Assembly: GCA_964594205.1 (NCBI GenBank)
Contig: CAZQLR010000004.1
Span: forward strand, 1 to 26,644
DNA length: 26,644 nt
DNA from: an uncultured Alphaproteobacteria bacterium
Lineage (GTDB): Bacteria; Pseudomonadota; Alphaproteobacteria; 16-39-46; JAJRRM01
Direction: 5' to 3'
The notes below the pieces were generated by a model. That model was not told where the DNA came from and made no database searches. It saw only the letters and a list, made by a program, of their open reading frames with translations. A program made the position numbers and the translations under genes. Positions 10,034-25,765 of this stretch are shown one piece after another (the stretch's first letter is position 1; each line of letters opens with the position of its first letter).

Positions 10034-10108
10034 ATAGTTTCTAAAAGCCGCCTATTTGTATTTTTAAATAAATACTTTTTGTTTTACGCAACCCATTATA
10101 TCAGCATC

Positions 10109-10167
10109 TTGCCGCTTGCGGCGAAGCACATTGATACAGATTTATTTGTAACATATAAGTGCGCCTT
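10109..10167 (+). other. oriT: MOBQ-type origin of transfer (oriT)
   Basis: TAAGTGCGCCTT (10156-10167) matches the RSF1010/pTi nic core TAAGTGCGCCCT. It is preceded by an imperfect IR (TGATACAGA..TTTGTAACA) and a GCCGC-tt-GCGGC hairpin (10111-10122), and lies between divergent traA and traC/D-like genes. Confidence 0.8.
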
Positions 10168-10256
10168 GCACAAGTTGCTCGGACAAGTGGATTTCATTTA
10201 TTTAACAATATAAACTCATAAAAAGGAAATATTTCTCCCCATATAAGCCAATTGTC

Positions 10257-10285
10257 TTGGCGTTTGAATGACTTTTTGATATACT
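10257..10285 (+). promoter_or_regulatory. Sigma70-type promoter for the 10313-11471 gene run
   Basis: TTGGCG-17 nt-TATACT, then AGGAG SD (10304-10308) and ATG at 10313. Confidence 0.55.
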
Positions 10286-10312
10286 CTCCTTGTAAGATCA
10301 GCGAGGAGATAA

Positions 10313-10678
10313 ATGGAAGAAAAACCTAACTCTGATGGACATCCAATACCTTCAGAACTAGTAGAAAGCATAGATGTAATTGCCACAAAAAAAGATGGAA
10401 GTGTGTTGCTGACAATAGTCTCTTCTGGTTACCTAGACGACTCAGATTACACCACCCAAAGAATTGTTGAAAAATTAAATAACTACTTGGGTTTTATTAA
10501 TGATGATGAATACAAAAACGAGTTTGGATCTCCCTCTCCTGAGAAGACTTTAATTGTTCTTACATGCTCCCAAAAGCCTGCAGCTTCCGTCATAGAATTT
10601 ATCGCATCAATACAAGAAAATGTTAATCACTACAATGCCTCCCTATTTATTGATTATGAGCAAGAGAAACAAGAATGA
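10313..10678 (+). CDS. DUF6572-like hypothetical protein (acidic, 121 aa)
   Basis: Pattern SIDVIA....G.VLLTI.......D.......EKLNNYLGFI recalls DUF6572. Strong SD; ATGA overlap with the next gene. Confidence 0.55.
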   Translation: MEEKPNSDGHPIPSELVESIDVIATKKDGSVLLTIVSSGYLDDSDYTTQRIVEKLNNYLGFINDDEYKNEFGSPSPEKTLIVLTCSQKPAASVIEFIASIQENVNHYNASLFIDYEQEKQE

Positions 10679-10938
10679 ACAAAATAACTGAACTTGATGA
10701 AAAAATTGCAAAACTCCAAAAGCAAAAAGAAACGCTTCAAAAGAAAGTCTCTATGAACTTGTTGAAGGATCTTTCCTCCATCTTAGGAGAGGAGTTCTCA
10801 CCGGAGCTTGTCTTGTCTATCGTGAAAGATTCCTGGAGCTCTGCCAACGATAAAACAAAGGAGGCTTGGCAAGATAAAGCCAGCACCTTTCGCAAAAAAA
10901 AGCAAACTGCCAGGAACAAAAAAACTAAAGCAGCTTGA
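10675..10938 (+). CDS. Small coiled-coil TraC/TraD(Ti)-like relaxosome accessory protein
   Basis: ELDEKIAKLQKQKE coiled coil and C-terminal W..KA..F; position next to oriT and traD(Ti). Confidence 0.5.
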   Translation: MNKITELDEKIAKLQKQKETLQKKVSMNLLKDLSSILGEEFSPELVLSIVKDSWSSANDKTKEAWQDKASTFRKKKQTARNKKTKAA

Positions 10939-10978
10939 TCTGAAACTCGCTTTACTTGAGACAAAAAGGTATAGACTC

Positions 10979-11239
10979 ATGAAACGTGAATCAGCTGGAA
11001 GTTCAGACTTTAGAAAAGCCAGAACACGAACCCTCATTCAACTTGGGGGGCTCGTAGAAAAATCAGGCCTCCTCCCTTACCTCAACATATCAATGGGAGA
11101 TGATCTCCAAGTAGATGAACACATCAAGGATGAGGTAGAGACCTTACTTGGACTGCTGGTCGATGCTAAACAATCCATGATTAACGATCCTGAATTTAAA
11201 CAGCTAGCTCAATTGAAGGGGAAACAGAGTTGGAATTAA
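10979..11239 (+). CDS. traD: Conjugal transfer protein TraD (Ti-type, small)
   Basis: RKARTRTLIQLGGLVEKSGL matches the Ti-TraD signature R(K)ARTR.LI.LGGLV.KAGL, with C-terminal L..KGK..W. Confidence 0.85.
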   Translation: MKRESAGSSDFRKARTRTLIQLGGLVEKSGLLPYLNISMGDDLQVDEHIKDEVETLLGLLVDAKQSMINDPEFKQLAQLKGKQSWN

Positions 11240-11240
11240 A

Positions 11241-11471
11241 GTGAAAACGAAACAAGTTGGCAGAACAGTCTTAGCTTTTGACGTTGAAACAAGTGGCGGC
11301 TCACTTACACAAAGTGGATTATTAAGCATTGGTGCCAGCCTTTTTGATGGGGTGGCTATAGAGTCAAAAGCTTTTCAAGTTAATATACAACTACCTGAAG
11401 AAAGGTCATTTGAGCTAGATAAGTATGGCATTTCCCATATAAAAAACCATTATATTCCATTTTTCTCCTAA
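11241..11471 (+). pseudogene. Truncated DEDDh/DnaQ-like 3'-5' exonuclease (ExoI motif only)
   Basis: VLAFDVETSG...LLSIGA matches ExoI. ExoII and ExoIII are absent, and the ORF runs into AT-rich intergenic sequence after about 11416. Confidence 0.7.
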
Positions 11472-11490
11472 AACTTTTATCATTCTATAC

Positions 11491-11522
11491 TTGACTCTAG
11501 ACTATAGTCCAGGAAGTATATT
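11491..11522 (+). promoter_or_regulatory. MerR-family promoter/operator (20-bp spacer) for merR-merT-merP
   Basis: TTGACT-CTAGACTATAGTCCAGGAAG-TATATT, with dyad CTAGACTA/TAGTCCAG (7 of 8 pairs). Confidence 0.85.
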
Positions 11523-11544
11523 AATTGTGAGGGAGTAAACATTC

Positions 11545-11958
11545 GTGGCTTTATTAACAATAGGTGGGATTGCAGCAGCGTGCTCAGTCAAGATTGACAC
11601 AGTTAGGTATTATGAAAAGCGAGGATTATTAGAGCCTATATCACGTACTAGTGTTGGATACCGTCTCTATAATGATAAGAGTGTATCTACATTAAAGTTT
11701 ATAAAACATGCTCAATATGTAGGCTTCTCACTCGAAGAAATAAAGAGCCTTATCATTATCAGTTTTTCAAGAAAAAATATATGTAACGAAGTTAAACAGA
11801 AAGTTCAAGAAAAGATAACCATCCTAGAAAGGAAAGAACGAGAGTTGATGAAAATGAAAAAGGCCTTAGAAGGAATTAAACGTGATTGTAGCAAAGTAAA
11901 AAATGAAGGGCAGCATTGTCCATTTCTGGAGCAGTACAGGTTGCAGGAGCGAGTTTAA
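11545..11958 (+). CDS. merR: MerR-family metal-responsive regulator
   Basis: HTH TIG.IA..CSV..DTVRYYEKRGLL, GYRLY; Cys80, Cys115, Cys125; GTG start with GAGGGAG SD; TAATG coupling to merT. Confidence 0.88.
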   Translation: MALLTIGGIAAACSVKIDTVRYYEKRGLLEPISRTSVGYRLYNDKSVSTLKFIKHAQYVGFSLEEIKSLIIISFSRKNICNEVKQKVQEKITILERKERELMKMKKALEGIKRDCSKVKNEGQHCPFLEQYRLQERV

Positions 11959-12335
11959 TGCAAAAAAACGGAAAAGAACCTTTAAACGCTAGGTGGGCGC
12001 TCGGCGCCGGCATAATAGCTGCTATTGCCTCAGCAGCTTGTTGTATTCTCCCTCTAATTTTATTTCTATTTGGTATCAGTGGCGCTTGGATTGGAAATTT
12101 GACGGCCATGGAGCCCTATCGTCCTTACTTTCTTACAGTTGCTGCAATAACAGTTCTGTTTGGGTATTGGAAAATATATCTCAAGAAAAAAGTCAACTCT
12201 TGTGAACGCGATAGTTATTGTTCTATGCCTAAATCTGATCTTATTAACAAGATTATGTTGTGGATTTCCTCAGTAATCATTATCCTAGTACTGTTATATC
12301 CTTATATAGCCCCCGTCGTTTTGAACTACCTATAA
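11958..12335 (+). CDS. merT: Mercuric ion transporter MerT (125 aa)
   Basis: ASAACCILPL, GISGAWIGNLT, EPYRP and loop Cys pair C-x5-C. ATG at 11958 overlaps the merR stop and has a CAGGAG SD; the ORF-track start at 11916 is too long. Confidence 0.92.
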   Translation: MQKNGKEPLNARWALGAGIIAAIASAACCILPLILFLFGISGAWIGNLTAMEPYRPYFLTVAAITVLFGYWKIYLKKKVNSCERDSYCSMPKSDLINKIMLWISSVIIILVLLYPYIAPVVLNYL

Positions 12336-12357
12336 GATAAGGAACATACACATAAAG

Positions 12358-12675
12358 TTGCATACATTTATACTTGTAATACTTTCAACCTGCTGCCTAG
12401 GGGTGAATGTTAACGCTCATGCACAACCCCCCTCTATCACAACAAAAACCAATAAAAAAATAGTCACACTGGAAATACCGGGTATGCATTGCCCAACTTG
12501 CCCATTTACTGTTCGGAAAAGCTTAAAAGAGGTGGATGGTGTTTTAGACATAAAAGTCTCGAGTCAAGATAGAACAGCTAGCGTAACTTATGATCCAACA
12601 AAAACTAGTGTAAAAAAGTTAATAGAAACCACAACTAAAGTAGGGTATCCCTCTACTGTAAGACATGAGAACTAA
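12358..12675 (+). CDS. merP: Periplasmic mercury-binding protein MerP
   Basis: Signal peptide, GMHCPTCPFTVRKSL HMA motif and TTKVGYPS, directly after merT. Start codon uncertain (TTG 12358 or ATA 12352). Confidence 0.88.
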   Translation: MHTFILVILSTCCLGVNVNAHAQPPSITTKTNKKIVTLEIPGMHCPTCPFTVRKSLKEVDGVLDIKVSSQDRTASVTYDPTKTSVKKLIETTTKVGYPSTVRHEN

Positions 12676-12788
12676 CCAACATCTGGTTACGGTCATATAT
12701 TGTTGCTGTCTGTCATTAATAGCGTTAGATGAATGCTCTTTAAAAGTTAAAGAACTTGTTTGATTGGGGTCTTTTCCATCAGTAATAA

Positions 12789-12816
12789 AGAGCGAATGAA
12801 TTAGTTCATTCGCTCT
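12789..12816. terminator. Bidirectional terminator-like hairpin between convergent merP and merA
   Basis: Perfect 12-bp IR AGAGCGAATGAA-ttag-TTCATTCGCTCT. Confidence 0.7.
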
Positions 12817-12848
12817 CACTCAACTAAATGTTATATTAATCGTTCAAT

Positions 12849-14477
12849 TTACAATTTAGAAAAAGGATCTTCATCAGAAGATTCATCTCTAAATCTACTC
12901 CCACGACTTCTTGGTCTTTCTTCTTGCTTAGCACAACAATCATGTTGTGCTGCCGCAGCTATAGGCAGATGTTTCATTTCCTCTTGTTCATCCCCTTCTG
13001 TATAGGTTGCGCTGTCAGAACAACAAGATAAGTTTTTGACATCTGTAAAGAATGTTTGTGCACAGAGCTTAATTCCCTCAACCATAGTTAGATAAGGATA
13101 AAGAGGTGCTGCAAGTTCAGAAATTGTCATCCTACCTCGAAGAGCAAAAACGGCGGTCTCAATAACATCCCCTGCATTTGATGCAACAATTTGAGCACCT
13201 AGTAAACGCCGCGTGCCTTTCTCGGCAACAAGCTTGATGAAGCCGTCCGTTTCAAAGTTAGCCAAGGCCCTTGGAACATTATCTAAAGTGAGAAGCCTAA
13301 CTTCAGCGTCTAAATTCATAGAATCAGCCATAGCCTTTGTTAACCCTACTGTTGCCACCTGTGGATCGGTAAAAACAACCTCAGGAACAATAGATAGGTC
13401 TAGATTTATCTGTTTTCCCGTCATATTCATAGCAGCACGTGTGCCAGCTGCAGCAGCAACATAAACATATTGAGGTTGATCTGTACAATCCCCAACAGCA
13501 AAGACATTTTCCACGCGCGTTCTCATGAATTTATCAACAGGAATACTTCCATTTGATGTTGTTTCCAAACCCACAGCTCCTAAATTCAGAGCGGTAGTAT
13601 TTGCATGACGACCTAAAGCAACTAACAACCGATCACCCGTGATCGTTTCATGGTCCGTAATGATGTTAAATATACCATCTCCATAAGAAACGTTCGTTGG
13701 TACAGTATGTGTCTTCACATTTATACTTGCCTGACGGAAAATTTTCTCCAATTGTGTTCCAATATCAGGATCCATTTTAGATAATAGAGTACTGCGAGCG
13801 AGAAGCGTAACATTTGACCCCAATCGAGAAAAGGCTTGGGCTATCTCTAAGGCTATAACAGACCCCCCAAGAACAATAAGATGTTTCGGAATTTCATCAC
13901 TGTACAAGGCTTCTTTAGATGTCCAATAAGGCGTTGAGGAAAGACCTTCTATATTAGGTATGTAAGGAGAGCTTCCTGTTGCTATTAATACGTTATCTGA
14001 TTTAAATTCCTCATGAGACCCTTCGCCTTTATCAACTAAAACTGTATTTTTATCTAAAAATTGAGCTGTTCCTTTTATAAGTCTAATAAGGGGGTGTTGA
14101 GATAGGACATGTTCATATTTCGCTCCTCTTAACTCCATAACACGGCCCGCACGTTGTTCTAATAAAGCTCTTGGATCAACCCTTGGTTCAAGACCCTCTA
14201 TCCCACGAAAAGGACTGTGGGCCTGAGAGTGAGCTATTTTCCCTGATTGAATAAGAATCTTAGAGGGAACACACCCATAATTAACGCATGTCCCTCCAAT
14301 GACGCCATCCCTTTCAATCATTGTTACTTCCTCTCCATGAGATGCCAAGTAAGTTGCCGCCGCAAAAGCTCCAGACCCACTTCCTATAATCGTGTGTTTT
14401 CCAGCCATACTCATTTGTACTCCTACAGTTGCACTGAAAACTATAGCAGAAAATATTACTACTTTTGTCTTTTTCAT
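12849..14477 (-). CDS. merA: Mercuric reductase MerA without NmerA, with signal-like N-terminus and 56-aa C-terminal extension
   Basis: IIGSGSGAFAAA, GGTCVNYGCVPSK, PQYVYVAAAAG, PRALANFETDGFIKLV, PYLTMVEGIKLCAQTF, NLSCC (C485-C486). Alternative start at ATG 14414. Confidence 0.95.
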   Translation of the reverse strand: MKKTKVVIFSAIVFSATVGVQMSMAGKHTIIGSGSGAFAAATYLASHGEEVTMIERDGVIGGTCVNYGCVPSKILIQSGKIAHSQAHSPFRGIEGLEPRVDPRALLEQRAGRVMELRGAKYEHVLSQHPLIRLIKGTAQFLDKNTVLVDKGEGSHEEFKSDNVLIATGSSPYIPNIEGLSSTPYWTSKEALYSDEIPKHLIVLGGSVIALEIAQAFSRLGSNVTLLARSTLLSKMDPDIGTQLEKIFRQASINVKTHTVPTNVSYGDGIFNIITDHETITGDRLLVALGRHANTTALNLGAVGLETTSNGSIPVDKFMRTRVENVFAVGDCTDQPQYVYVAAAAGTRAAMNMTGKQINLDLSIVPEVVFTDPQVATVGLTKAMADSMNLDAEVRLLTLDNVPRALANFETDGFIKLVAEKGTRRLLGAQIVASNAGDVIETAVFALRGRMTISELAAPLYPYLTMVEGIKLCAQTFFTDVKNLSCCSDSATYTEGDEQEEMKHLPIAAAAQHDCCAKQEERPRSRGSRFRDESSDEDPFSKL

Positions 14478-14522
14478 CGAAAATCTCTCAAGTTAATTTA
14501 TCAAAAAATTAGTCTCTTCTGA

Positions 14523-14554
14523 AGCGTACAACCTAGACTTAGGTCTATGGTCAA
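14523..14554 (-). promoter_or_regulatory. Second MerR-family promoter/operator (20-bp spacer) driving merA
   Basis: Minus strand TTGACC-ATAGACCTAAGTCTAGGTTG-TACGCT; core TAGAC-N4-GTCTA at the same offset as in the 11491 promoter. Confidence 0.85.
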
Positions 14555-14706
14555 GAAATTTTTTCTTTTTATAGGGATTCACACAACATGTCGTAGTTTA
14601 AATCAACACAAGCTGTGTATTTAAGAAATAAAACACAACCCCACCTTTGGTTTATTTCTACTACAATATAGGATACACTTGAGGTGATAAAACAGAGACT
14701 TTAAAT

Positions 14707-15216
14707 ATGATAGAGATTATCCCTAATTTTCACCCTTTGCTGGTACATTTTCCCATTGCACTTATCGCCGTTTCCGCAGGAACCCTGTTCCTTGGGTTAC
14801 TTATCGGTACGAAAAACAAATTTGGGAAAGAGTTTTTAATTGTATCTAGATGGTCATTGTGGTTCGCCGCTTTTATGTCAATATTTACCATCATAGCTGG
14901 ATTTGATGCTTATTATTCCGTTGCTCATGATAAACCCTCCCACGATATGATGACTATTCATAGAAACTGGGGACTTTCTACCTTTGTACTTCTCATACTG
15001 TTAACTTTCTGGAGTGTTTTTACATTCCTTACGAGAAGAACACCTTCAAAGACCTTTTGTTTTAGTATGATTCTTTTGTTTCTTCTTGTTATGACCACAG
15101 GTTGGTATGGCGGGGAAGTTGTTTATCGTTATGGACTTGGTGTTATGAGCCTCCCCAAGGTTGAGGGTCCAGGACATGATCATAGCCATGAAGATAGCTC
15201 GGCCCATGATCATTAA
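14707..15216 (+). CDS. DUF2231-family membrane protein with His-rich tail
   Basis: HPLLVHFPIAL, G..A...H....HR, GWYGGEVVYRYGLGV; tail HDHSHEDSSAHDH. Confidence 0.8.
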   Translation: MIEIIPNFHPLLVHFPIALIAVSAGTLFLGLLIGTKNKFGKEFLIVSRWSLWFAAFMSIFTIIAGFDAYYSVAHDKPSHDMMTIHRNWGLSTFVLLILLTFWSVFTFLTRRTPSKTFCFSMILLFLLVMTTGWYGGEVVYRYGLGVMSLPKVEGPGHDHSHEDSSAHDH

Positions 15217-15244
15217 TTCATGAGCCTTTAGTAGGGAGTAATAA

Positions 15245-17581
15245 ATGCATTCTTGTTGTCATAACAAAAACGAACTTAAAAGCAACACGACCGACACGGA
15301 TCCAGTATGCGGTATGAGTGTCGATCCGGATAAAACACCCTACAAGACCTCTTATAAAGACCATACCTATTATTTTTGTAGCCAGAAGTGCCAGCAAAAG
15401 TTTGAAAAGTCCCCTGCACACTTTCTTGCTAAAGAAAAGCCTGAAGATCCGCAAACCCTACCCCAAGACATAATTTATACATGCCCAATGCATCCCGAAG
15501 TGGAGCAAATTGGGCCTGGTAGCTGTCCCATATGCGGCATGGCATTGGAACCAAAAGATGGCGTTGTTAATGAGGATCAAAGTGAACTCATAGATATGAC
15601 TCGACGATTTTGGGTGTGTGCGCTTTTATCCTTCCCAGTTCTATTGCTCGTCATGCTGGACCATATTCCTGGCCTATTTCTTGAGTTTTATATCCCTGCA
15701 AAAGCCATACTCTGGATTGAGTTTGTTTTGGCAACGCCTGTTATGGTATGGGGTGCAGCCCCTTTTTTTCAAAGAGCTTGGCAGTCTATCGTAACCTGGA
15801 ACTTAAATATGTTTACACTTGTGGCCCTGGGAACGGGTGTGGCATATGTCTACAGCATTATTGCCACCCTCTGGCCAGAAATATTTCCCAAGGAAATGCA
15901 TATGCCAAATGGCCTAGTGGACGTATATTTTGAGGCAGCTGCAGTTATTGTCACTTTAGTGTTATTAGGTCAGGTAATGGAGCTTCGGGCACGCGCCAAA
16001 ACGAATAAAGCCATTCGCGACTTGCTTGACCTCGCCCCTAAAACAGCCCGCATCATATATAACAATGGAGAGGAAGCCGACATTCCCCTTGATGAAGTCC
16101 AGGTCGGAGATAAACTGCGTGTGCGACCTGGAGAATCAATTCCTGTTGATGGTATTATTATAGAGGGGACAAGTACAATTGATGAGTCCATGATTACAGG
16201 GGAGTCTATGCCTGTATCTAAAAAAGAAGGGGACTCTATTACAGGTGGTACATTCAATCAAACAGGCAGCTTTATTATGGAGGCAAAAAAAGTAGGTGCC
16301 GAAACTGTCTTGTCACAAATTGTTCACATGGTAGCCGAAGCCCAACGCAGCCGGGCCCCCGTGCAAAAGCTTGCAGATAATGTGGCGGGGTATTTCGTGC
16401 CAATCGTTGTTCTAGCATCAGGCATCACAGCTGTTGTGTGGGCAATATGGGGGCCAACACCGGCGCTTTCCTACGCTATTATCAATGCTGTTGGGGTGTT
16501 AATTATTGCGTGCCCTTGCGCCATTGGTTTAGCAACTCCTATGTCTATTATGGTTGGTACAGGTAGAGGGGCCCAAAGTGGTATTTTAATCAAGAATGCC
16601 GAAAGCCTAGAGTTAATGAAAAAAGTAGACATTCTAATCGTTGATAAAACGGGTACCCTTACGGCAGGGAAACCAGAGCTAACATCGGTTCTACCAGTGG
16701 GAGAATATGACAAAACAGAGCTTTTGGGATTGGCGGCGGCCCTTGAAATGGGAAGCGAACACCCTCTTGCCAAAGCAATTGTGGAAGGCGCCAAGAAGAA
16801 TGGTATCAAGCTCAAAAAAGTTAAAAACTTTGATGCTGTCACGGGGAAAGGCGTTATGGGTGAGGTTGGAAAGCATAAAGTGGCCTTAGGCAACGATCAA
16901 CTACTCGCCACCCTCAACATCAAAGGAGAAGATCTGAATAAAAAAGCTGACACTCTACGCGACCAAGGGGAAACCGTTATGTTTCTGGTAGTTGATGATA
17001 CACTAGCAGGCCTTATCAGTGTGTCTGATCCAATTAAGTCCACAACACCGGCGGCTCTTCAGGCGCTAAAGAAAGCAGGGATGCGTGTTATCATGCTCAC
17101 TGGGGATAACGAAAAGACAGCCAGAGCTGTAGCAAATCAACTAGAGATTACTGAAATTGAAGCTGGGGTTCTGCCTGATCGGAAAAGTAACGTTGTAAAA
17201 CGTTTCCAAAAGGAAGGCTATACAGTGGCCATGGCGGGAGATGGTGTGAACGATGCCCCCGCTTTAGCACAAGCCGATGTAGGCATTGCCATGGGAACAG
17301 GCGCAGATATTGCGATGGAAAGCGCTGAAGTAACCCTTATCAAGGGCGATTTGACTGGAATAGTACGGGCACGCAAACTAAGCCAAGCAACGATGACGAA
17401 TATACAACAAAATCTTTTCTTTGCCTTTGCGTATAATGTAACAGGTATTCCTATTGCTGCCGGGGTGCTTTATCCTTTTCTAGGACTGCTGCTGAATCCC
17501 ATTATTGCCAGTATGGCCATGGTGTTTAGTTCTATCTCGGTAATTCTTAATGCGGCAAGGTTAAACAAAGTGAGGCTATAA
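15245..17581 (+). CDS. copA: Cu(I)/Ag(I)-transporting P1B-type ATPase with YHS and CPMHP metal-binding domains
   Basis: DPVCGM..YYFCS..C (YHS), [64 protein letters not shown]. Confidence 0.95.
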
Positions 17582-17591
17582 AAACAAGAAA

Positions 17592-19670
17592 ATGACTAAA
17601 TATTTCTCTCAAACAACAGTTGCTTTATCCCTACTCTTCCTGGCCATTCTCTCAACAAGTTGGGCCAAAACAGTGTCCTACAATTTAGTCGTCACACCCA
17701 AAACACTTATCGTTAAAGATGAGAAAGTAAAAGCACTTTCTTATAACAATAAAATACCAGGCCCCACACTCTATGCCACCGTTGGTGATATGTTGGAAGT
17801 TTCTGTAACCAACAATCTAGAAGAAGAAACATCCGTTCATTGGCATGGCGTTCTCTTACCAAATGATCAAGATGGTGTTCCCTATTTAACGACGCCGCCA
17901 ATAAAACCTGGGGGGACATTCACCTATAAATATGAAGTCACCCACCCCGGCACCTATTGGTATCATTCACATTCAGGTCTTCAGGAGCAGTTAGGGCTTT
18001 ATGGCTCGCTCGTATTTCTCCCCAAAGAAACATCTCATCGCGCCGACCATGACTACGTCGTTGTTCTATCTGACTGGATTAATGAACCGCCTGGAACGGT
18101 GACATCAAATATTAAACGCCAAGATAACTACTATGCCTTGAAAAAAAATGCCGTTCAATCTTGGCTGGGCGTTATAGAAAATGGATGGCCGGCCATAAAA
18201 TCACGACTAGAAGGTGCCTGGGACCGCATGGGGCCCATGGATATCTCTGATGTTGGGTATGATGCCTTCTGGGCAAATGGCAAACCCATAACCCACCTAG
18301 ATGCCAAACCTGGTGATACTGTCCGCATAAGACTCATTAATGCAGGCGCCTCAACTTATTTTTATCTACAGTATGCGGGCGGCCCCATGACAATTGTTGC
18401 CGCAGACGGTGTGGATGTAGAACCAGTGGACGTTAATAGCTTGAAGATTTCCGTAGCAGAAACCTATGATGTTCTTGTTAAAGTCCCTCTTCAACATACC
18501 TACGAGCTAAGAGCTACAGCGGAAGATGGAACAGGATACAGTTCTATACAGATTGGTGAGGGGTCCCTTATTACTGCTCCAGATATGCCCAAACCTAATA
18601 TCTATTTAAGTCATAGCGATCATGGAATGAACCATGCCGGCAATGAACGAGATAATCAACAGATGTCTTCTCATGGATCAGAGCAGCATGGACATATCAT
18701 GTCACATAACACAGACAAACACGCTGAATCCATGGACATGAACGAGTATGATATCTTACGTGCCACCTCAGAAACAGCTTTGCCGGCCCATCAACCTTGG
18801 CAAACTATTACACTCAAGCTCACTGGGAATATGGAACGCTACGTATGGACGTTTAATAATGAGACGCTGTCTGAAGCAGATAAAATTCTTATTAAAAAAG
18901 GGGAAAACGTCCGCTTTATTTTAAAGAATGAAACAATGATGCATCACCCTATTCATTTACATGGTCACTTCTTCCGTGTGGTAAATAAACATGGCGACTA
19001 TAGCCCTTTAAAACATACCGTTAACGTGCCACCGATGAGCACTGTCGAAATTGAATTTGATGCCAATGAAGAAAAAGACTGGTTTTTCCACTGCCATAAT
19101 CTATATCACGTGAAAACGGGCATGGCTCGCATCGTTTCGTATGAAGGGTCAACAACAGCAACAGACAAAACTATTGCCAAGCTTGCTCATGACACTGACT
19201 GGTTTCAAGCCTACGACTTAAGTGCTCTATCGAATATGACTTATGGTCATGGTAAAATCGGTAACACGCGCAATGCTTTCATGGTTGACTACGAAGCAAA
19301 CTACGAAAAAGAGTATGATGTTGACTTAACTTATGACCGTAATATTTCTAGGTATTTAGATATATATGGAGGGGTTAATTTTGAACGGGCAGATGCCAAG
19401 AAAAAAGGCGAAGCAAAGGGTATTGTGGGTCTGAAATATGTCCTACCTTTACTCATTGAAAGTGATCTTCGTTTAGATGACGATGGCCATGTGCGCTTGC
19501 GACTTGGTTCGGAGCTTCAATTAACAGACCGCAGCAGCCTAAGCTGGCAATGGGATACAGATCATGCATATCGCATATCAACCTCTTATGAGCTCCAAAA
19601 AGACTTTTACCTCTCCGGCGTCTATGATTCAGAAAACAAACTAGGTATTGGGATAAGAGTAAAATTCTAA
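17592..19670 (+). CDS. Multicopper oxidase (CopA/PcoA-like) with C-terminal beta-barrel-like extension
   Basis: VHWHG, WYHSH, HPIHLHGH, HCHNLYHVKTGM copper motifs; His/Met linker; about 175 extra C-terminal residues ending IGIRVKF. Confidence 0.9.
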   Translation: MTKYFSQTTVALSLLFLAILSTSWAKTVSYNLVVTPKTLIVKDEKVKALSYNNKIPGPTLYATVGDMLEVSVTNNLEEETSVHWHGVLLPNDQDGVPYLTTPPIKPGGTFTYKYEVTHPGTYWYHSHSGLQEQLGLYGSLVFLPKETSHRADHDYVVVLSDWINEPPGTVTSNIKRQDNYYALKKNAVQSWLGVIENGWPAIKSRLEGAWDRMGPMDISDVGYDAFWANGKPITHLDAKPGDTVRIRLINAGASTYFYLQYAGGPMTIVAADGVDVEPVDVNSLKISVAETYDVLVKVPLQHTYELRATAEDGTGYSSIQIGEGSLITAPDMPKPNIYLSHSDHGMNHAGNERDNQQMSSHGSEQHGHIMSHNTDKHAESMDMNEYDILRATSETALPAHQPWQTITLKLTGNMERYVWTFNNETLSEADKILIKKGENVRFILKNETMMHHPIHLHGHFFRVVNKHGDYSPLKHTVNVPPMSTVEIEFDANEEKDWFFHCHNLYHVKTGMARIVSYEGSTTATDKTIAKLAHDTDWFQAYDLSALSNMTYGHGKIGNTRNAFMVDYEANYEKEYDVDLTYDRNISRYLDIYGGVNFERADAKKKGEAKGIVGLKYVLPLLIESDLRLDDDGHVRLRLGSELQLTDRSSLSWQWDTDHAYRISTSYELQKDFYLSGVYDSENKLGIGIRVKF

Positions 19671-19679
19671 GAAGGTAAA

Positions 19680-20624
19680 TTGCTTATTGAGAACAATTCC
19701 ATGTGGCAACGCAAACCAATCCAAATTCTTCTAATCTTGAGCGTTATGATGTTATGGGCAAGTTGCTATCCTTTGATTTCTCTAGGCCTCCCACACGCGC
19801 CTCATTTAACTTTTGCGGCCTTAAGGGCTTCTTTAGCTGGAGGATCATTACTTATACTTTCTTTCATCCTACAAAAACCTCAGCCTACAGGTTGGCGGCA
19901 CTGGACCAAAATAACCATCATAGGTTTTTGTGCTACAACGCTTGGCTTTTTTGGTATGTTTCACGCGTCTGAATTTATTTCTCCGGGTATTGCTACTGTG
20001 CTCACCAACACACAGCCCCTTATTGCTGCTGTCCTCGCGAGCTACTTTCTCAAAGAGAATTTAGGGTACGGTGAAAAAGCCGGTTTAGTTGTTGGCTTTC
20101 TCGGAGTTATCTTAATTGCTGTGCCTACAGCAAGTACAATAGCACATGAAACTTATAATCTTGGCTTGTCCTATATTACCATAGCTGCCATTGGGGTGGC
20201 TATTAGCAACGTTATACTTAGAAACCTCAGTAAACAAACGAATGCGCTTACAACAATGGGATGGCAACTCATCATTGGCAGCTTATTTCTTTGGATATTG
20301 GCTCTTTTATTTGAAGATACATTTCAGATTAATTGGCACCCAGATTTTATTATTAGTTTGCTTGGTCTTGCTATTCCAGGTACCGCAATGGTTTACTGGT
20401 TATGGTGCAAAATATTACAACACGTAGAACTGACTTATGCCAATAGTTACAGCTTTCTGGTGCCTATTCTCGGTCTTCTTTTTGGTTACTTCTTCTTCCA
20501 GGAGAACTTAAGCGTACAACCCATCATTGGTGTTATATTAACTTTATTGGGCATAGTTCTCGTTAATATAAACGAGAAAAAATCCCAAAAAGTAGAACCA
20601 ACTAAAATTAAAGGGAATCTTTAA
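19680..20624 (+). CDS. EamA/DMT-family transporter
   Basis: Ten hydrophobic segments in two repeats (ALRASLAG, ISPGIATVLTNTQPL, LLFGYFFFQE). Start is TTG 19680 or ATG 19701. Confidence 0.88.
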   Translation: MLIENNSMWQRKPIQILLILSVMMLWASCYPLISLGLPHAPHLTFAALRASLAGGSLLILSFILQKPQPTGWRHWTKITIIGFCATTLGFFGMFHASEFISPGIATVLTNTQPLIAAVLASYFLKENLGYGEKAGLVVGFLGVILIAVPTASTIAHETYNLGLSYITIAAIGVAISNVILRNLSKQTNALTTMGWQLIIGSLFLWILALLFEDTFQINWHPDFIISLLGLAIPGTAMVYWLWCKILQHVELTYANSYSFLVPILGLLFGYFFFQENLSVQPIIGVILTLLGIVLVNINEKKSQKVEPTKIKGNL

Positions 20625-21950
20625 ATGGAACCATCTCACATGCATCAGCATAACACTTCTTATAGAAAAAATAGTCTGTCGCTAGTTGGCGCTGTCTCCC
20701 TTGGAACGGGGGTTATGATTGGTGCTGGTATTTTAGCTTTAACTGGGCAAATTGCCGAACTAGCCGGCAGTTTATTTCCTTTCGTTTTTCTTGCCGCCGC
20801 CCTTGTGACAGCTTTTAGCGCCTATTCATACGTAAAGTTGTCCAATGCTTTTCCCTCCGCCGGGGGCATTGGCATGTTCTTAGAAAAAGCGTATGGAAAA
20901 AGCACAATGACCGCAGCCTGTGCCCTACTTATGTATTTTTCTATGGTCATTAATGAAAGTCTTGTTGCCCGTACTTTTGGAACTTACACCCTTCAACTTT
21001 TCGACTTTCCTCAGACGAGTTGGCTTATTCCATCCCTTGGAGTTGGGTTATTGATTTTTGCCTTCTTCATCAATATGTTAAGCAACAAACTTATCAGTAC
21101 TTTTTCCCTACTTATGGCTTTCCTTAAAATAGGCGGCATAACCCTTTTCGCCCTTGGTGGCCTGTGGATTTCAGATTTCTCTTGGGAACATCATACACTT
21201 AAGGCAACACCTACTTCTATAGAAGGTTTTTTTGCGGCCATGGCATTAGCTATATTGGCATACAAGGGATTTACAACTATTACAAACAGCGGTTCAGAAA
21301 TAACCAACCCGCATCGTAATGTTGGAAGAGCCATCATTATATCAATCATTATTTGTGTGTCCCTCTATTTACTTGTGGCCCTTGCAGTGGCTGGCAATTT
21401 ATCAATATCAGAAATCATAGCCGCCAAAGATTATGCCCTTGCTCAAGCTGCTAAACCAGCTTTCGGCAGCTATGGACTTTGGTTTACAGTGGCCATAGCA
21501 ATCATTGCCACCGTTTCAGGTGTCATTGCCAGTGTTTTTGCTGTCTCACGTATGCTGGCCATGCTCACAGAAATGAAGCTTGTGCCGCATAGTCATTTTG
21601 GTATGAAAGGGTCCTTACAAAGGCATACACTAGTTTATACTATCGTCCTTGCAATTCTTTTGACAATCTTCTTTGATTTAAGCAGAATTGCTGCCCTTGG
21701 GGCTATTTTTTACATAACAATGGACATTGCTGTACATTGGGGGGTGTTAAAACATCTCAAAAAATCGATAAAGGCTCATGCTGGCATTCTTATCATGGCT
21801 ATTGTTTTTGATCTTATGGTATTGCTCGCGTTAATTCTGGTCAAAATAAATACAGATGTGACTGTTGTCTACTTAGCCGCAAGTCTCATGATTATTATCT
21901 TTGTAGGAGAACGCTTTTTTCTAAGAAAACAACATGACCATATCGATTAA
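20625..21950 (+). CDS. APC-superfamily amino-acid permease
   Basis: GTGVMIGAGIL (TM1), PSAGG, LAYKGFTTITNSGSEITNP.RN, SRML; abuts the EamA stop codon. Confidence 0.9.
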   Translation: MEPSHMHQHNTSYRKNSLSLVGAVSLGTGVMIGAGILALTGQIAELAGSLFPFVFLAAALVTAFSAYSYVKLSNAFPSAGGIGMFLEKAYGKSTMTAACALLMYFSMVINESLVARTFGTYTLQLFDFPQTSWLIPSLGVGLLIFAFFINMLSNKLISTFSLLMAFLKIGGITLFALGGLWISDFSWEHHTLKATPTSIEGFFAAMALAILAYKGFTTITNSGSEITNPHRNVGRAIIISIIICVSLYLLVALAVAGNLSISEIIAAKDYALAQAAKPAFGSYGLWFTVAIAIIATVSGVIASVFAVSRMLAMLTEMKLVPHSHFGMKGSLQRHTLVYTIVLAILLTIFFDLSRIAALGAIFYITMDIAVHWGVLKHLKKSIKAHAGILIMAIVFDLMVLLALILVKINTDVTVVYLAASLMIIIFVGERFFLRKQHDHID

Positions 21951-21959
21951 GGTGTTTTT

Positions 21960-21982
21960 TTACTCTTGCGGAGTAACTTTTT
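21960..21982 (+). terminator. Possible weak terminator ending the copper operon
   Basis: TTACTC-ttgcg-GAGTAA followed by CTTTTT; short stem. Confidence 0.35.
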
Positions 21983-22059
21983 CTGGATTACGTTACCAAT
22001 AGAATAAAAGTTTTTAATATTTTAAATCTATGAAACGCATAAATTAATTTATTCAATGG

Positions 22060-22965
22060 ATGATTACGGGGGTTATTATGCCTATAGCAAAGCAAAAGTT
22101 ATATAGTACGTTTTTTATATTAGCCTATCTTTTTGTTGCGCCTTTTTGTTTAGCTGGCCTCCACGATGATCAAGACATACAGCCGTACGAAGCAGCTCCC
22201 TCCCGTGTTCCAGTGCACCCTGTTGCTAGCGCCTCTTACACAAGTAATGATCAATATAACGAAACCGGATGTTGCGGAAAGTGTTCCAGAAAGTCCCAAG
22301 ATTGCTGTTACCAATGTCTTGTACCTTGTTGGGGGCCCATTGTTGCTGGGTTTGAGCCTGGCCGGAGAGAAGCTTTTCGACTTCTTGATATTCAGGATAC
22401 AGACATGGTATTGCTCGACGGCGAAGGAGATGGGCTTGACTTTGCCCAGTTCCCTTCCAGTTTCAACTTAAACAACCTTCATGCCCTAGATTTTTCTTCT
22501 AAAATGGTTAAAAAAGCCAAAGAAAGAGGTCGAATCTTGGGTATCCCTGACCAGAATATAGTTCAAGGTGATGCCCAAGAAATTCCCTATACAACAGAAA
22601 GATTTGACAAAATATTTTTCCCCCTTTCGTTAGCATCTATCCCAAACCCCTCTCTAGCCTTACAAGAAGCAGAAAGAGTTCTAGCGCCTCAAGGTAAAAT
22701 AATCATTATGGAAAAGCTAGTAGATGAGGGACAAAAAGTAACGTGCGGCAGACGATTTTTAAACTTCTTCACCAAGCGCATCTTTGCTGATATAATACGG
22801 GACCTACCAACTATGATGTATGGGCAACCGTTGAAACTGACCCATTATACCTCATTAAATGGCCTGCTTAAGGGGTGTTGGAGTTGTATAGGGAAACATT
22901 ACAAACTTGCTGTACTTGTCAGGGATGCAGATTACCCCTCTGTTCCTGCCGTCCCAGCAAACTAA
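22060..22965 (+). CDS. Class I SAM-dependent methyltransferase (PmtA-like core) with signal-like N-terminus and Cys cluster
   Basis: VLLDGEGDGLD (divergent motif I), ALDFSSKMV, QGDAQEIPY...FDKI, SIPNP..ALQEAERVLAPQGKIIIMEK. Likely start ATG 22078. Confidence 0.8.
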   Translation: MITGVIMPIAKQKLYSTFFILAYLFVAPFCLAGLHDDQDIQPYEAAPSRVPVHPVASASYTSNDQYNETGCCGKCSRKSQDCCYQCLVPCWGPIVAGFEPGRREAFRLLDIQDTDMVLLDGEGDGLDFAQFPSSFNLNNLHALDFSSKMVKKAKERGRILGIPDQNIVQGDAQEIPYTTERFDKIFFPLSLASIPNPSLALQEAERVLAPQGKIIIMEKLVDEGQKVTCGRRFLNFFTKRIFADIIRDLPTMMYGQPLKLTHYTSLNGLLKGCWSCIGKHYKLAVLVRDADYPSVPAVPAN

Positions 22966-23017
22966 AAGATGTAAGCTAATTAGATTTTTAACCTAAGTTG
23001 ATGGGAGGCGTAAGAGC

Positions 23018-23662
23018 ATGTACATCAGCCTTCAAAGAATACTATTAGTGATATCAGTGTTATTCTTAGCAGATAGCGCAGTAGGTATAAAAAATGACGA
23101 ATGCAGCGATGATCTTAGCGTATCCCACGTCTCTTCAACAAGAAGTCAACCAGAAGGTCAGCTTGTCAATGCCCTGAAAATTGAAGAATTAGTGGCATCT
23201 TGTGGGGTCTCTACGTGTTTGAGGGTTTCCATTCCCATTGAAGCACCTGCTGAACTTGTCTTCTCTTTAGTTTCTGATATCCGAGGTAACTCTCTGTTTT
23301 TTCCAACTACAGAATTTCGATTTGATGGTACGTGCCCTATTAAAACGGGTGATCAGTATTTTGCACGCGAAGCTGGCAAACAAGAATGGATAAAGTACCA
23401 ATTTATTGATGTAGAAGAAAATCGTTTGATGAGCGGTGAGCTCAGTGAAAAAAATGGGATGATCAAACGAATGCGATATAACCACGAAATTCTGCCCATT
23501 TCTGATGGCAGATGTCTTTCTCAGGAAACAGTGGAGTATCAGTTGGCCTGTGGATGTCTTGGGAATCTCATTAATCTCGTTGCCTAACCAAAAGTTAAAC
23601 AGATGCTCACCAGAGCCCATATCAAATTAAAAACTGTTGCGGAAACTAACCATAGAAGTTAA
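23018..23662 (+). pseudogene. SRPBCC/START-fold protein with signal peptide, interrupted by an in-frame TAA at 23585-23587
   Basis: SIPIEAPAELVFSLVSD..G...F and G...L.QETVEY fit SRPBCC. The frame continues past the stop as PKVKQMLTRAHIKLKTVAETNHRS*, which looks like the terminal helix. GGAGG SD. Confidence 0.65.
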
Positions 23663-23673
23663 TTGGTGTTTCA

Positions 23674-23910
23674 TTATTTATCCCTCTCTTCTCTATCATC
23701 ATCACGTTTAGCGTGTTTATGATGCATAAAAATGTGCATTAGGGGACACAATAACAAAATTATCAACAGCAAAGCTTGAAGTACGTGCGCTTTATGTTCT
23801 GTTGATATATAAAACGCAGTCAGTAGCAATAAAATAATAATAAATGTTAGACCCTTGCTCATCCACTTATTTCTGGGTTCTCCTGGCTTATGATAACGTT
23901 CATCATCCAT
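23674..23910 (-). CDS. DUF2933-family small membrane protein
   Basis: EHKAHV...LLLCPLMHIFMHHKH signature; family commonly found beside copper ATPases. Confidence 0.85.
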   Translation of the reverse strand: MDDERYHKPGEPRNKWMSKGLTFIIILLLLTAFYISTEHKAHVLQALLLIILLLCPLMHIFMHHKHAKRDDDREERDK

Positions 23911-24012
23911 TGTATTTAACTTGGTTATTAAGTTTATACTTGCTATAAAGCATATTTTATTATTTTAACAAATATCTTCATCTATTTATAATAGCAAAAT
24001 AAAGAGTATTGT

Positions 24013-24180: not shown

Positions 24181-25437
24181 TTATCCTTTATATCCTTCAA
24201 ACACATAGGGATTCATAAATTGTCGTTTCCAGAATAGATTACGGTCAACACCTGAAATTTCTGCTTCATCGCAAACTGTGGCCCAGTTGGTCTCTATTAT
24301 TTTGACCTGGTTGTCAATTATATCTCTTGCTTGTGAAATATTAAGGAGAAAGTTATGTGCCGCAGTCTGGCATAGCTGAAGCTGGCTTTCTCTTCTATTT
24401 CCTAAAATTGACATTGCCTGGTTGGAGATATTTCCCGTTCTATTTTGAGGACAGATATCATAGGCAGGTGTGAGTGACAAGCTTTCACCATCCCAATATG
24501 CCGCATGATTCCGCGCATGGTCATCCGTATTACCTACAAGAATATTAAAGACAAGGCGTCCAAACAACTCTTTGAGCATTTTAGGCGCTTCTTTAAAACG
24601 ATGTCTGATAATTTCCGACAAATCTTCATAACTCGCATAGCGTGCCACCATTTCATCTAACCCAAGCAAGGTAAGCGCTGAAACTATGCCTCGCCTTGAC
24701 CATCCTTTCTCTGTTCGTTCGCGATCAAACCGCTCAATAAGTAATACGTCCTTCTTGAGTGATTTTGTTAATGAAACATTCGCTACATCAAGGCCACAGA
24801 GTACCGCTAGACGCATCGCCACATATTCAAGCTTCACGACATTATATATATCTGCCGAGGATGAAAACTTCGCTATATACTTCCTGTTTTTTTCTTCTAT
24901 TAACGCTTTAGGTCGAGCCCCACCTATAGACGTCCCATGGTTCAGAACCTGACTCAGTTCGCCAGAAACTGGCTTCCCCTCTTCAACAAGTTTAGCGGCT
25001 GTTAAGAGTTCTTCCAAGCTAGCTGTGCTCTTTTTCCGTGGTGTGTAGTTTGTTGGTGATACTTGAAAGTCCAACGCGCCTATACGATCTGAACCCGACT
25101 CAAGTAGGTATGTGAGCTCACCTAACTGGGTTGTATCACCATCGCACTTGCCCTGGATCTTATTAATGATAACCCGCCTTCCCCAAGCATCAGGCGACGC
25201 ATCCCGAATACAATTTGGCATTTTGAGACCTGGGATCAACGGCAATTTCCCCTGCTTCAGCGGCAACTCCTTATCATAGATCGCGATGGCGTCGTCTCTA
25301 TTTAGATAGCTTTGACCATAGTTGAAACTAAGAAGTCCGTTGTCTTCTTCTAACTTTCCAGCCACAACGGGGTCTATGGCTCCAGGGAGCCATATCCATA
25401 CATATACTTCCTTGTATTGCTCTGCTTTAGAAATCAT
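24181..25437 (-). CDS. hipA: HipA-family Ser/Thr kinase toxin with N-terminal coupled domain
   Basis: VVAGKL..F.YG.SYL, DASPDAWGRRVI, SIGGARPKA, LLIERFDR, GNTDDHARNH, LTPAYDICP. Confidence 0.92.
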   Translation of the reverse strand: MISKAEQYKEVYVWIWLPGAIDPVVAGKLEEDNGLLSFNYGQSYLNRDDAIAIYDKELPLKQGKLPLIPGLKMPNCIRDASPDAWGRRVIINKIQGKCDGDTTQLGELTYLLESGSDRIGALDFQVSPTNYTPRKKSTASLEELLTAAKLVEEGKPVSGELSQVLNHGTSIGGARPKALIEEKNRKYIAKFSSSADIYNVVKLEYVAMRLAVLCGLDVANVSLTKSLKKDVLLIERFDRERTEKGWSRRGIVSALTLLGLDEMVARYASYEDLSEIIRHRFKEAPKMLKELFGRLVFNILVGNTDDHARNHAAYWDGESLSLTPAYDICPQNRTGNISNQAMSILGNRRESQLQLCQTAAHNFLLNISQARDIIDNQVKIIETNWATVCDEAEISGVDRNLFWKRQFMNPYVFEGYKG

Positions 25438-25765
25438 CTTCCAGTGGCTTTTCTTTCTTTCTTACATATTTAGGCAAAATAGCTATTTTATCTTGAAGTC
25501 TCTCAGTTAAAGTTTCATATTCTTGTGTTTCCTCTCCCAACAGCTTAATCCCAACAATTGCGGCTACTTCAAAAACAAGCCCTATCTCACAGTACATATC
25601 CCCCTTCTCAATCTTATTGAGTGTTGTCCGGCTCATTTTAGCGCGCGCCGCCAAGTCAGACATTGTCATCTTTAGCTCTTTCCTTTTAAGCTTAATAAGG
25701 GCCCCTAAGGCTTCCACAGCCATCTGACCATTCTTTGAATAAGGGCGCTTTCTCTTCATTTGCAT
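25427..25765 (-). CDS. XRE-family HTH antitoxin (HipB-like)
   Basis: LG..IKLKRKELKMTMSDLAARAKMSRTTLNKIEKG; 11-nt overlap with hipA. ATG 25759 has better SD spacing. Confidence 0.88.
   Translation of the reverse strand: MQMKRKRPYSKNGQMAVEALGALIKLKRKELKMTMSDLAARAKMSRTTLNKIEKGDMYCEIGLVFEVAAIVGIKLLGEETQEYETLTERLQDKIAILPKYVRKKEKPLEDDF

Follow-up and report, generated by a model that had tools for sequence, protein, structure and literature searches.

The window analysed here, that is, the whole 26,644-nucleotide stretch, is an entire 26.6-kb contig (C4 of the genome bin G000; GC content ~41%) from an uncultured alphaproteobacterium, and it encodes a mercuric reductase, MerA, that carries an N-terminal Sec-type export signal. 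Textbook mercury resistance imports the poison and then reduces it in the cytoplasm, and MerA, with its need for NADPH and FAD, is deemed a strictly cytoplasmic enzyme. The mercury-resistance system is well known; in the literature searched we found no paper on a signal-bearing MerA and none linking MerA to peroxisomal targeting, and a review of the Holosporales does not mention mercury. The sequence features described below make export of this MerA over the inner membrane likely. For the further step, in which the exported MerA would reduce Hg(II) outside the bacterial cytoplasm with host cofactors, in parallel with a cytoplasmic isoform in the window's organism, we consider the case to be evenly balanced.

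A clade of signal-bearing mercuric reductases

The window merA gene (12849-14477, reverse strand) encodes a core mercuric reductase that exceeds the curated mercury(II) reductase cut-offs (NF010311, 673.6 vs 600 bits; TIGR02053, 505.5 vs 454.45 bits), and its redox-active CxxxxC motif (C64, C69) and vicinal pair (C485, C486) fall in invariant alignment columns. NmerA is absent, since the profile match begins only at residue 26. The residues before it (1-26; 14400-14477, reverse strand) consist of MKKTK, an n-region with a charge of +3, and a 21-residue uncharged stretch that ends in S-M-A; the matching segment is kept in 15 relatives. Past the catalytic pair the protein continues for another 56 residues (12852-13019, reverse strand), a tail that holds a second Cys-Cys pair (HDCC; C514-C515), an acidic stretch and a final -SKL (12852-12860). 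The gene is convergent to merRTP and has a MerR-type promoter of its own (14523-14554, reverse strand; TTGACC, a 20-nt spacer with a dyad, TACGCT), which lies upstream of Met1 and aligns with the merA promoters of three related loci (L001, L004 and L111).

The nearest MerA relatives share only 55-62% identity with the window protein. An N-terminus of matching type (MKTK-SFLKSIMAAATALFININPLSA), with an acidic stretch between it and the Rossmann fold, was found in 13 of the first 20 relatives. Maximum-likelihood trees united the signal-bearing MerAs in one clade (support 97/98; 20 rows, 15 with a signal), within which the window MerA sits on a long branch, and placed the canonical MerAs, with or without NmerA and with ends of the type ...CCAG/AA/AS, elsewhere. 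Every member of the signal clade has a tail of 4-56 residues instead of ...CCAG, and the second Cys-Cys recurs in P0001, P0002, P0005, P0012, P0014, P0018, P0053 and P0072. A cleavable Sec-type signal would have replaced NmerA in this lineage, and a longer tail the ...CCAG end. The initial annotation had described MerA as a cytosolic-type core with a signal-like peptide and extra Cys motifs, a description borne out by the profile scores, the conservation of the signal in the clade and the second Cys-Cys in relatives.

Rows without a signal inside the clade partly reflect differences in start calling, because P0008, which has no signal as annotated, is identical in its core to P0009, which has one. 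Surveys of merA are affected, as start-site calling hides the signal in some database entries. One clade member without a signal, P0015 (789 aa), has a C-terminal extension of 327 residues beyond the second Cys-Cys that looks membrane-like. Among the NmerA-less cytoplasmic MerAs outside the clade (P0023, P0070, P0088, P0090, P0104, P0109 and P0207), a short N-terminal leader with a Cys-Cys is frequent.

The genes themselves indicate that the signal is translated in the relatives. The ATG of the signal at L001, L004 and L111 is immediately preceded by AAGGAG or TAAGGAG and by a MerR-type promoter that includes the dyad, and the merA of L004, from a Candidatus Paracaedimonas acanthamoebae metagenome-assembled genome (MAG), has no in-frame internal ATG. 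At that locus the promoter, the ribosome-binding site, the signal and the first mature residues have been copied in front of an intact merB, with amino-acid changes that are all conservative; P0011 is a fusion of signal-bearing MerA with MerB. In L111 a cytoplasmic-type MerA (N-terminal Cys-Cys motif, ...LSCCAS end) is encoded within a full merT-merP-merA-merT operon, and an additional signal-bearing MerA stands under a separate promoter, a pairing that argues for two compartments. Taken together as sequence evidence, the promoters, the merB duplication, the conservation and the L111 pair exclude chance and mis-annotation as explanations of this clade and indicate that signal-bearing MerA has a role of its own. 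The initial annotation had allowed that the true starts might lie downstream of the hydrophobic segments; in the relatives the ribosome-binding sites precede the signals, while in the window a downstream candidate does exist, an in-frame ATG for Met22 (14412-14414, reverse strand) with AGGAG 5 nt upstream.

Several further observations were made at loci of this kind. A CMD/AhpD-like protein of 126-128 aa with a CxxC and a C-terminal CxC leads the merR-merT unit that is divergent from signal-merA in L001 (7242-7628), L110 (8388-8768) and L003, and is absent from the window. A 467-aa flavoprotein of L001 was considered as a second MerA and rejected because it lacks the C-terminal Cys-Cys. The Simkania negevensis plasmid (FR872581.1) encodes a MerA::MerB fusion without a signal and with an N-terminal MMSSCC (L102:4874-6994); adjoining it, upstream of merR, is a 136-aa Cys-rich membrane protein (L102:7427-7837), with the methyltransferase discussed below divergently adjacent. 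A class-wide search with the Paracaedimonas MerA against 400 genomes, too sparse for mapping the distribution, returned only one further MerA, of the canonical type.

A methyltransferase with the same type of signal

A second enzyme of the window, a PmtA-like class I S-adenosylmethionine (SAM) methyltransferase (22078-22965, forward strand; open reading frame (ORF) 22060-22965), appears to carry the same type of signal as MerA. Its likely start is 22078, behind GGGGG, and it comprises a signal (22078-22158), a disordered linker and a cluster of seven Cys (22270-22329), a feature that varies from zero to seven Cys over the family. In the AlphaFold model (pLDDT 84) the signal helix and the disordered linker lead into a long helix, with a Rossmann fold after it. 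The best match among solved structures was the bacterial PmtA 8YS9 (TM-score 0.85 on the target, rmsd 2.6 Å), which shares the helix before the Rossmann fold. By sequence the protein is neither a PmtA (NF045882, 21.8 bits vs a cut-off of 390) nor an ArsM (NF008823, 31.2 bits vs a cut-off of 263), and membership of the UbiE family was likewise rejected. Membrane lipid head groups and metal-thiol species are candidate substrates. The initial reading of this gene as a methyltransferase with a signal-like N-terminus and a Cys motif agrees with the class I SAM fold, the conserved signal and the seven Cys. The conservation of its signal, like that of the MerA signal, is more than chance would give.

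The family is small, with only 49 relatives among 5.8 billion clusters, and its signal-bearing members cluster in the family tree. A clade of 22 rows, to which the Simkania negevensis plasmid copy belongs, has no signal and carries a hydrophilic N-terminal extension instead; in these signal-less proteins (P0133-P0175) the extension measures 35-75 aa, with a recurrent (S/N)EL(R/H)(Q/R)R near the start. The window protein is 50% identical to a signal-bearing Paracaedimonas copy that lies beside merT-merR (L004). On the Simkania plasmid (L102) the methyltransferase gene lies between the mer operon and genes for a DUF2231 protein and a multicopper oxidase (MCO). Elsewhere it follows MCO-DUF2231-ArsP (L106 and L115) or CusB-CusA and a His-rich 286-aa protein (L116-L119 and L125), or adjoins DUF2231 (L120-L122 and L130). 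The methyltransferase family is therefore a recurrent component of mer/cop/cus islands. The His-rich neighbour belongs to a group of signal-bearing proteins of 284-290 aa, with the His-rich portion at the N-terminus, encoded between CusBA-type genes and the methyltransferase (L116-L119, including L117, L125 and L103:4103-4963); they end in ...(F/I)(V/I)PFG(V/I)(N/Q/G)V(K/NP) and probably form a periplasmic metal-handling family.

All three genomes with a signal-bearing MerA (G000, G041 and the Paracaedimonas genome G042) also encode a signal-bearing methyltransferase, G041 in two copies, and the methyltransferase was found in none of the four relatives from the window's order that were searched, all of which also lack this MerA. 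The co-occurrence that the initial annotation had proposed to check was seen for these two proteins. MerA and methyltransferase genes are adjacent in L004 and L102, and G000, G041 and G042 each contain both; the sample is small, however, and its genomes are not independent of one another.

The third gene that the initial annotation had placed in the same exported set encodes an SRPBCC-like protein (23018-23662, forward strand; ORF 23018-23587) and is a probable pseudogene or truncated form. Its signal-like N-terminus stood up to analysis; its family assignment, its integrity and the conservation of the signal did not. The Pfam match (Polyketide_cyc2) scored under the gathering threshold (25.8 vs 27.4 bits), and the gene has an in-frame TAA (23585-23587). 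It is judged truncated or decaying because homology to the nearest relative continues beyond this TAA to the natural stop at 23660-23662, so that the last 24 codons, and with them an intact C-terminal helix, are lost. A word-based search gave no relative of it, and an exhaustive search of 1.8 billion representatives gave 27 family members, most without a signal and four with lipoprotein-like N-termini; none of these relatives was located together with MerA or the methyltransferase. We read the SRPBCC gene as a near-orphan and decaying bystander. Many of its relatives keep a C-x-P-x-x-G-[FYW]-x-x-C motif ahead of the first strand.

An acidic S/D/E tail had also been proposed to link MerA with a signal-bearing 533-aa protein without family assignment (1161-2762, forward strand). 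The two C-termini are acidic yet gave no alignment with each other, and acidic C-termini occur in only 6 of the 785 ORFs of G000, most of them housekeeping proteins, so the tail was rejected as a motif of the lineage and as a link between the two proteins. The 533-aa protein has no demonstrated tie to the metal genes. It was also compared with the 532-aa neighbour of the methyltransferase in L103, and no similarity was found.

An alternative explanation for these associations is that there is no system at all, the three proteins (MerA, methyltransferase and SRPBCC protein) being independent envelope-protein cargo brought together by mobile elements shared among protist symbionts. The three genes form separate transcription units ~7.5 kb apart, the SRPBCC gene is truncated and nearly orphan, many methyltransferase loci have cus/cop but no mer genes, and the methyltransferases of G041 lie on contigs other than that of merA. 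However, two phyla are represented among the loci where the methyltransferase gene directly adjoins merT/merR (L004 of Paracaedimonas and L102 of the Simkania plasmid), and the two enzymes co-occur in every one of the signal-MerA genomes, few and non-independent as these are. We regard independent cargo as a possible account, albeit a somewhat doubtful one.

Lifestyle and the site of mercury reduction

The assembly that contains the window (G000) comes from an aquatic metagenome according to its sequencing runs, and is 0.98 Mb in size, 81% complete and uncontaminated. No 16S rRNA was found in the assembly, and its DnaK, with 75-83% identity to all compared sequences, Paracaedimonas included, places the genome in the Alphaproteobacteria only. 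A full-length ATP/ADP translocase is encoded in G000, in G041 and in the Paracaedimonas genome G042, as well as in all eight genomes of the window's order (1.0-1.9 Mb), and the three genomes with signal-bearing MerA are small (1-2 Mb). NTT transporters are viewed as a hallmark of intracellular life, yet they are not exclusive to it (PMC5381601), and Candidatus Paracaedimonas lives in the cytoplasm of Acanthamoeba (PMC11909080). The genomic data support an organism of the host-dependent intracellular type, a reduced alphaproteobacterium, as the initial annotation had supposed from the window.

The site at which an exported MerA could act depends on its cofactors. The initial annotation had taken it as established that the periplasm offers no NADPH or SAM, a premise that fails for symbionts dwelling in the host cytosol: these take up host ATP, NAD and SAM across their envelope, so that the metabolites must enter the periplasm (PMC5381601, PMC3104491). 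MerA could therefore act in the periplasm with no delivery into the host. In the mechanism that we propose, MerR would detect Hg(II) and drive the promoter set directly before the signal-coding start, and the pre-protein would cross the inner membrane. The exported MerA would then reduce Hg(II) to Hg(0), either in the periplasm or after release into the host cytosol, with NADPH and FAD drawn from the host cytosol that surrounds the symbionts, and the extra Cys-Cys of the tail may take over the Hg-fishing role of NmerA. In the window, the Met22 start behind AGGAG probably yields a cytoplasmic isoform too, which would handle the Hg brought in by MerT and MerP. If this is true, the logic of mercury resistance is inverted where "outside" is a cofactor-rich host cytosol, and the protein would offer a concrete case in which the envelope of a symbiont makes use of host metabolites. 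Metal protection that symbionts provide for protists may be exemplified as well.

Several points weigh against this proposal. At four loci (the window, L003, L004 and L110) merT has been kept as a neighbour of signal-MerA, and import of Hg(II) into a cell without a cytoplasmic reductase should be harmful. The first ATG of the window merA has only a weak GAGAG, compared with the strong AGGAG of Met22. Together, the retained merT/merP and the internal start argue that a cytoplasmic form probably also exists, that is, against export alone. MerA needs FAD, and flavoproteins are usually exported folded via the twin-arginine translocation (Tat) pathway; the signals lack a consistent twin-arginine motif, and FAD would have to be acquired after Sec export. 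An oxidising periplasm is awkward for a protein with three Cys pairs, and NADPH (~745 Da) may fail to pass ordinary porins. Markers of a type IV (VirB4) or a type II (GspG) secretion system were not found in G000, G041 or G042. Secretins do occur in these genomes, the sole one of G000 being encoded next to glyQS at the end of a contig, but no route over the outer membrane could be assigned. The action inside the host cell that the initial annotation had proposed is weakened by the missing VirB4 and GspG markers. Finally, the assignment of mobile contigs to MAG bins is uncertain, and of the 42 bin contigs of at least 8 kb only one deviates more than C4 in its tetranucleotide profile (r = 0.92 vs a median of 0.97). 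This deviation, and the lack of this MerA in relatives from the window's own order, fit a mobile acquisition.

Whether the N-terminal segment is a signal or an anchor was assessed by manual metrics on 20 N-termini (MerA, MerB and methyltransferases) and by alignments. All 20 have a positive n-region and 13-25 uncharged residues, and in 19 of them the early mature region is net-negative, the exception being the window MerA. The hydrophobic cores are short (~11-15 residues); an N-x-N-P often comes next, and positions -3/-1 hold small residues. These features correspond to those of cleavable Sec signals (a positive n-region, an h-region of 7-15 residues, small residues at -3/-1 and a neutral or acidic early mature region). 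No consistent twin-arginine motif was present in the aligned N-termini, and a Tat signal was rejected for this reason. The pattern fits a cleavable Sec signal that would direct the domain outward, and not a cytoplasm-facing anchor.

Such an anchor is nevertheless the basis of a second alternative, in which the uncleaved segment would hold a cytoplasm-facing MerA (and likewise MerB and a lipid-type methyltransferase) close to MerT, with proximity replacing NmerA. It would account for the conservation of merT beside signal-MerA and for the uncharged stretch of 20-25 residues in the MerAs, it is in line with PmtA, the nearest fold of the methyltransferase, working on membranes, and it removes the cofactor problem, as all cofactors are cytoplasmic. 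However, the charge layout in 19 of the 20 N-termini, positive before and acidic after the segment, is opposite to what a cytoplasm-facing domain needs; the short cores, the N-x-N-P and the small -3/-1 residues resemble those of cleavable signals; and a separate cytoplasmic MerA is kept in L111. We consider a membrane tether unlikely.

A third explanation is restricted to the window and holds that its MerA is translated solely from Met22 or Met24 behind AGGAG, the 21 upstream codons being an inherited and poorly used leader and the locus an ordinary mer/cop self-protection cassette. The placement of AGGAG 5 nt before Met22, against the weak GAGAG before Met1, speaks for this, as do the presence of merT and merP, the normal core MerA that a Met22 start gives, and the annotation of several database relatives from a Met just past the signal (P0008 and P0017). 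The last argument is undercut by the P0008/P0009 identity, from which the downstream annotations of relatives are read as start-calling differences. Moreover, the upstream codons have stayed open, with the full n/h/c signal pattern kept on a long branch of a clade whose signal is clearly translated, and the MerR promoter lies upstream of Met1. A purely cytoplasmic MerA in the window seems rather improbable to us, and export together with a cytoplasmic isoform remains the reading that we prefer.

The C-terminal tail raises a more far-reaching version of the exported-MerA proposal. Applying the peroxisomal targeting signal 1 (PTS1) tripeptide [SAC][KRH][LM] at the very end of the protein, we found -SKL in P0001, in the P0010/P0016/P0021 group and in P0072, and -SKM in P0005; other members end in -PKL or -SNL. 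Ends of the -SKL type occur in at least four separate MerA lineages, on tails of 10-56 residues, and PTS1-type ends are found in only 3 of the 785 ORFs of G000. The P0072 MerA (L112:249-1742, also L113), a member of the extended-tail lineage, has no signal, possesses the second Cys-Cys, ends in -KPSKL and lacks a ribosome-binding site. On these JGI contigs a G-alpha gene stands beside it (L112:2347-3461), interrupted by a canonical 74-nt GT...AG intron; once this is spliced out, the G-alpha P-loop region is whole again. The contig is considered eukaryotic because the neighbouring G-alpha gene has an intron and P0072 lacks a ribosome-binding site, and P0072 gives the appearance of a bacterial merA with a PTS1-like end that has passed to a eukaryote. 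The extended-tail MerA lineage would then have reached at least one eukaryote.

A second eukaryote-type motif was seen in a signal-bearing, probably polytopic family of 550-590 aa with exact CaaX-like ends (-CELL, -CGIM, -CILI and -CTIL), which often flanks the methyltransferase in related symbionts (L103:5011-6672 and 10854-12626; L118/L119; L123/L124; L142:2433-3746; L143:1585-2805) and is absent from the window's genome. These ends, the -SKL tails and P0072 are hints, short of proof, that some signal-bearing proteins of the lineage may meet eukaryotic cytosol. That signal-MerA, in Paracaedimonas also MerB, and the methyltransferase are released into the protist cytosol, where -SKL would send MerA to the host peroxisomes, appears distinctly improbable; if it were true, a mobile element would equip a host cell with organelle-targeted mercury detoxification.

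The mercury and copper island and known systems

The window is a conjugative or mobilisable Hg/Cu island. It begins with a traD-like gene (7-1044, forward strand), followed, after the 533-aa protein, by a Ti-type relaxase/primase of 1726 aa (4853-10033, reverse strand). The mer genes that precede the convergent merA on the contig are all on the forward strand: merR (11545-11958; Pfam MerR_1 and MerR-DNA-bind), merT (11916-12335 as the listed ORF, with the true start probably at ~11958; Pfam MerT, 109 bits) and merP, a periplasmic Hg-binding protein with its own signal (12358-12675; TIGR02052, 88.1 bits, slightly under the cut-off of 92.55). Also on the forward strand are a DUF2231 membrane protein with a His-rich C-terminus (14707-15216; Pfam DUF2231), of the family that recurs beside the methyltransferase elsewhere, a copper-type P1B ATPase (15245-17581; TIGR01511, 595 bits) and a CopA-type MCO with a CopB-like C-terminal part (17592-19670; Pfam Cu-oxidase_3/2/1 with a weak CopB match, and TIGR01480). 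Two transporters, an EamA/DMT protein (19680-20624; Pfam EamA, with generic NCBIfam matches only) and a member of the amino-acid permease family (20625-21950; Pfam AA_permease_2), precede the methyltransferase on the same strand. A hipBA-like pair (24181-25765, reverse strand) lies beyond the SRPBCC gene. A megablast search of positions 10000-24000 against a plasmid collection gave no match.

The closest known counterparts of the window genes are the Tn501/Tn21-type mer systems. Their MerA shares the FAD/NADPH disulfide-oxidoreductase core, the CxxxxC, the vicinal Cys pair and the conserved Tyr residues, and their operons share the MerR-controlled promoter and the presence of merT and merP in the island. 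The window differs in having a signal in the position of NmerA, a 56-aa tail with a second Cys-Cys and -SKL in that of ...CCAG, and a convergent merA. To our knowledge, all characterised MerAs are cytoplasmic and have no export signal. The core MerAs of bacteria and archaea likewise have no N-terminal HMA domain; their first residues belong either to the Rossmann fold itself or to a short hydrophilic leader, which often holds a Cys-Cys (P0023, P0070, P0088 and P0207), and they end in ...CCAG, whereas the leader of the window MerA is a signal peptide and its extra Cys-Cys lies in the C-terminal tail.

PmtA (8YS9) resembles the window methyltransferase in its fold and in the long helix before the Rossmann fold, with only ~21% identity. 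PmtA itself is a cytoplasmic peripheral membrane enzyme, whereas the window protein has a signal, a disordered linker, a Cys cluster and a metal-island setting. Among the symbiont and pathogen proteins with eukaryotic sorting motifs we know of no detoxification enzyme. A likeness to these proteins, and to the periplasmic proteins that Holospora releases into its host (in titles cited by PMC11909080), is the pairing of an export signal with a C-terminal eukaryote-type motif, here -SKL on MerA and the CaaX-like ends of the family that flanks the methyltransferase in related genomes. The exported proteins CueO/CopA and MerP offer a parallel in function as a periplasmic first line of defence, since they deal with the metal before it enters the cytoplasm and exported, signal-bearing proteins of this kind lie in the same island. 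They use O2 or bind the metal and require no nucleotide cofactors, unlike MerA and the SAM methyltransferase.

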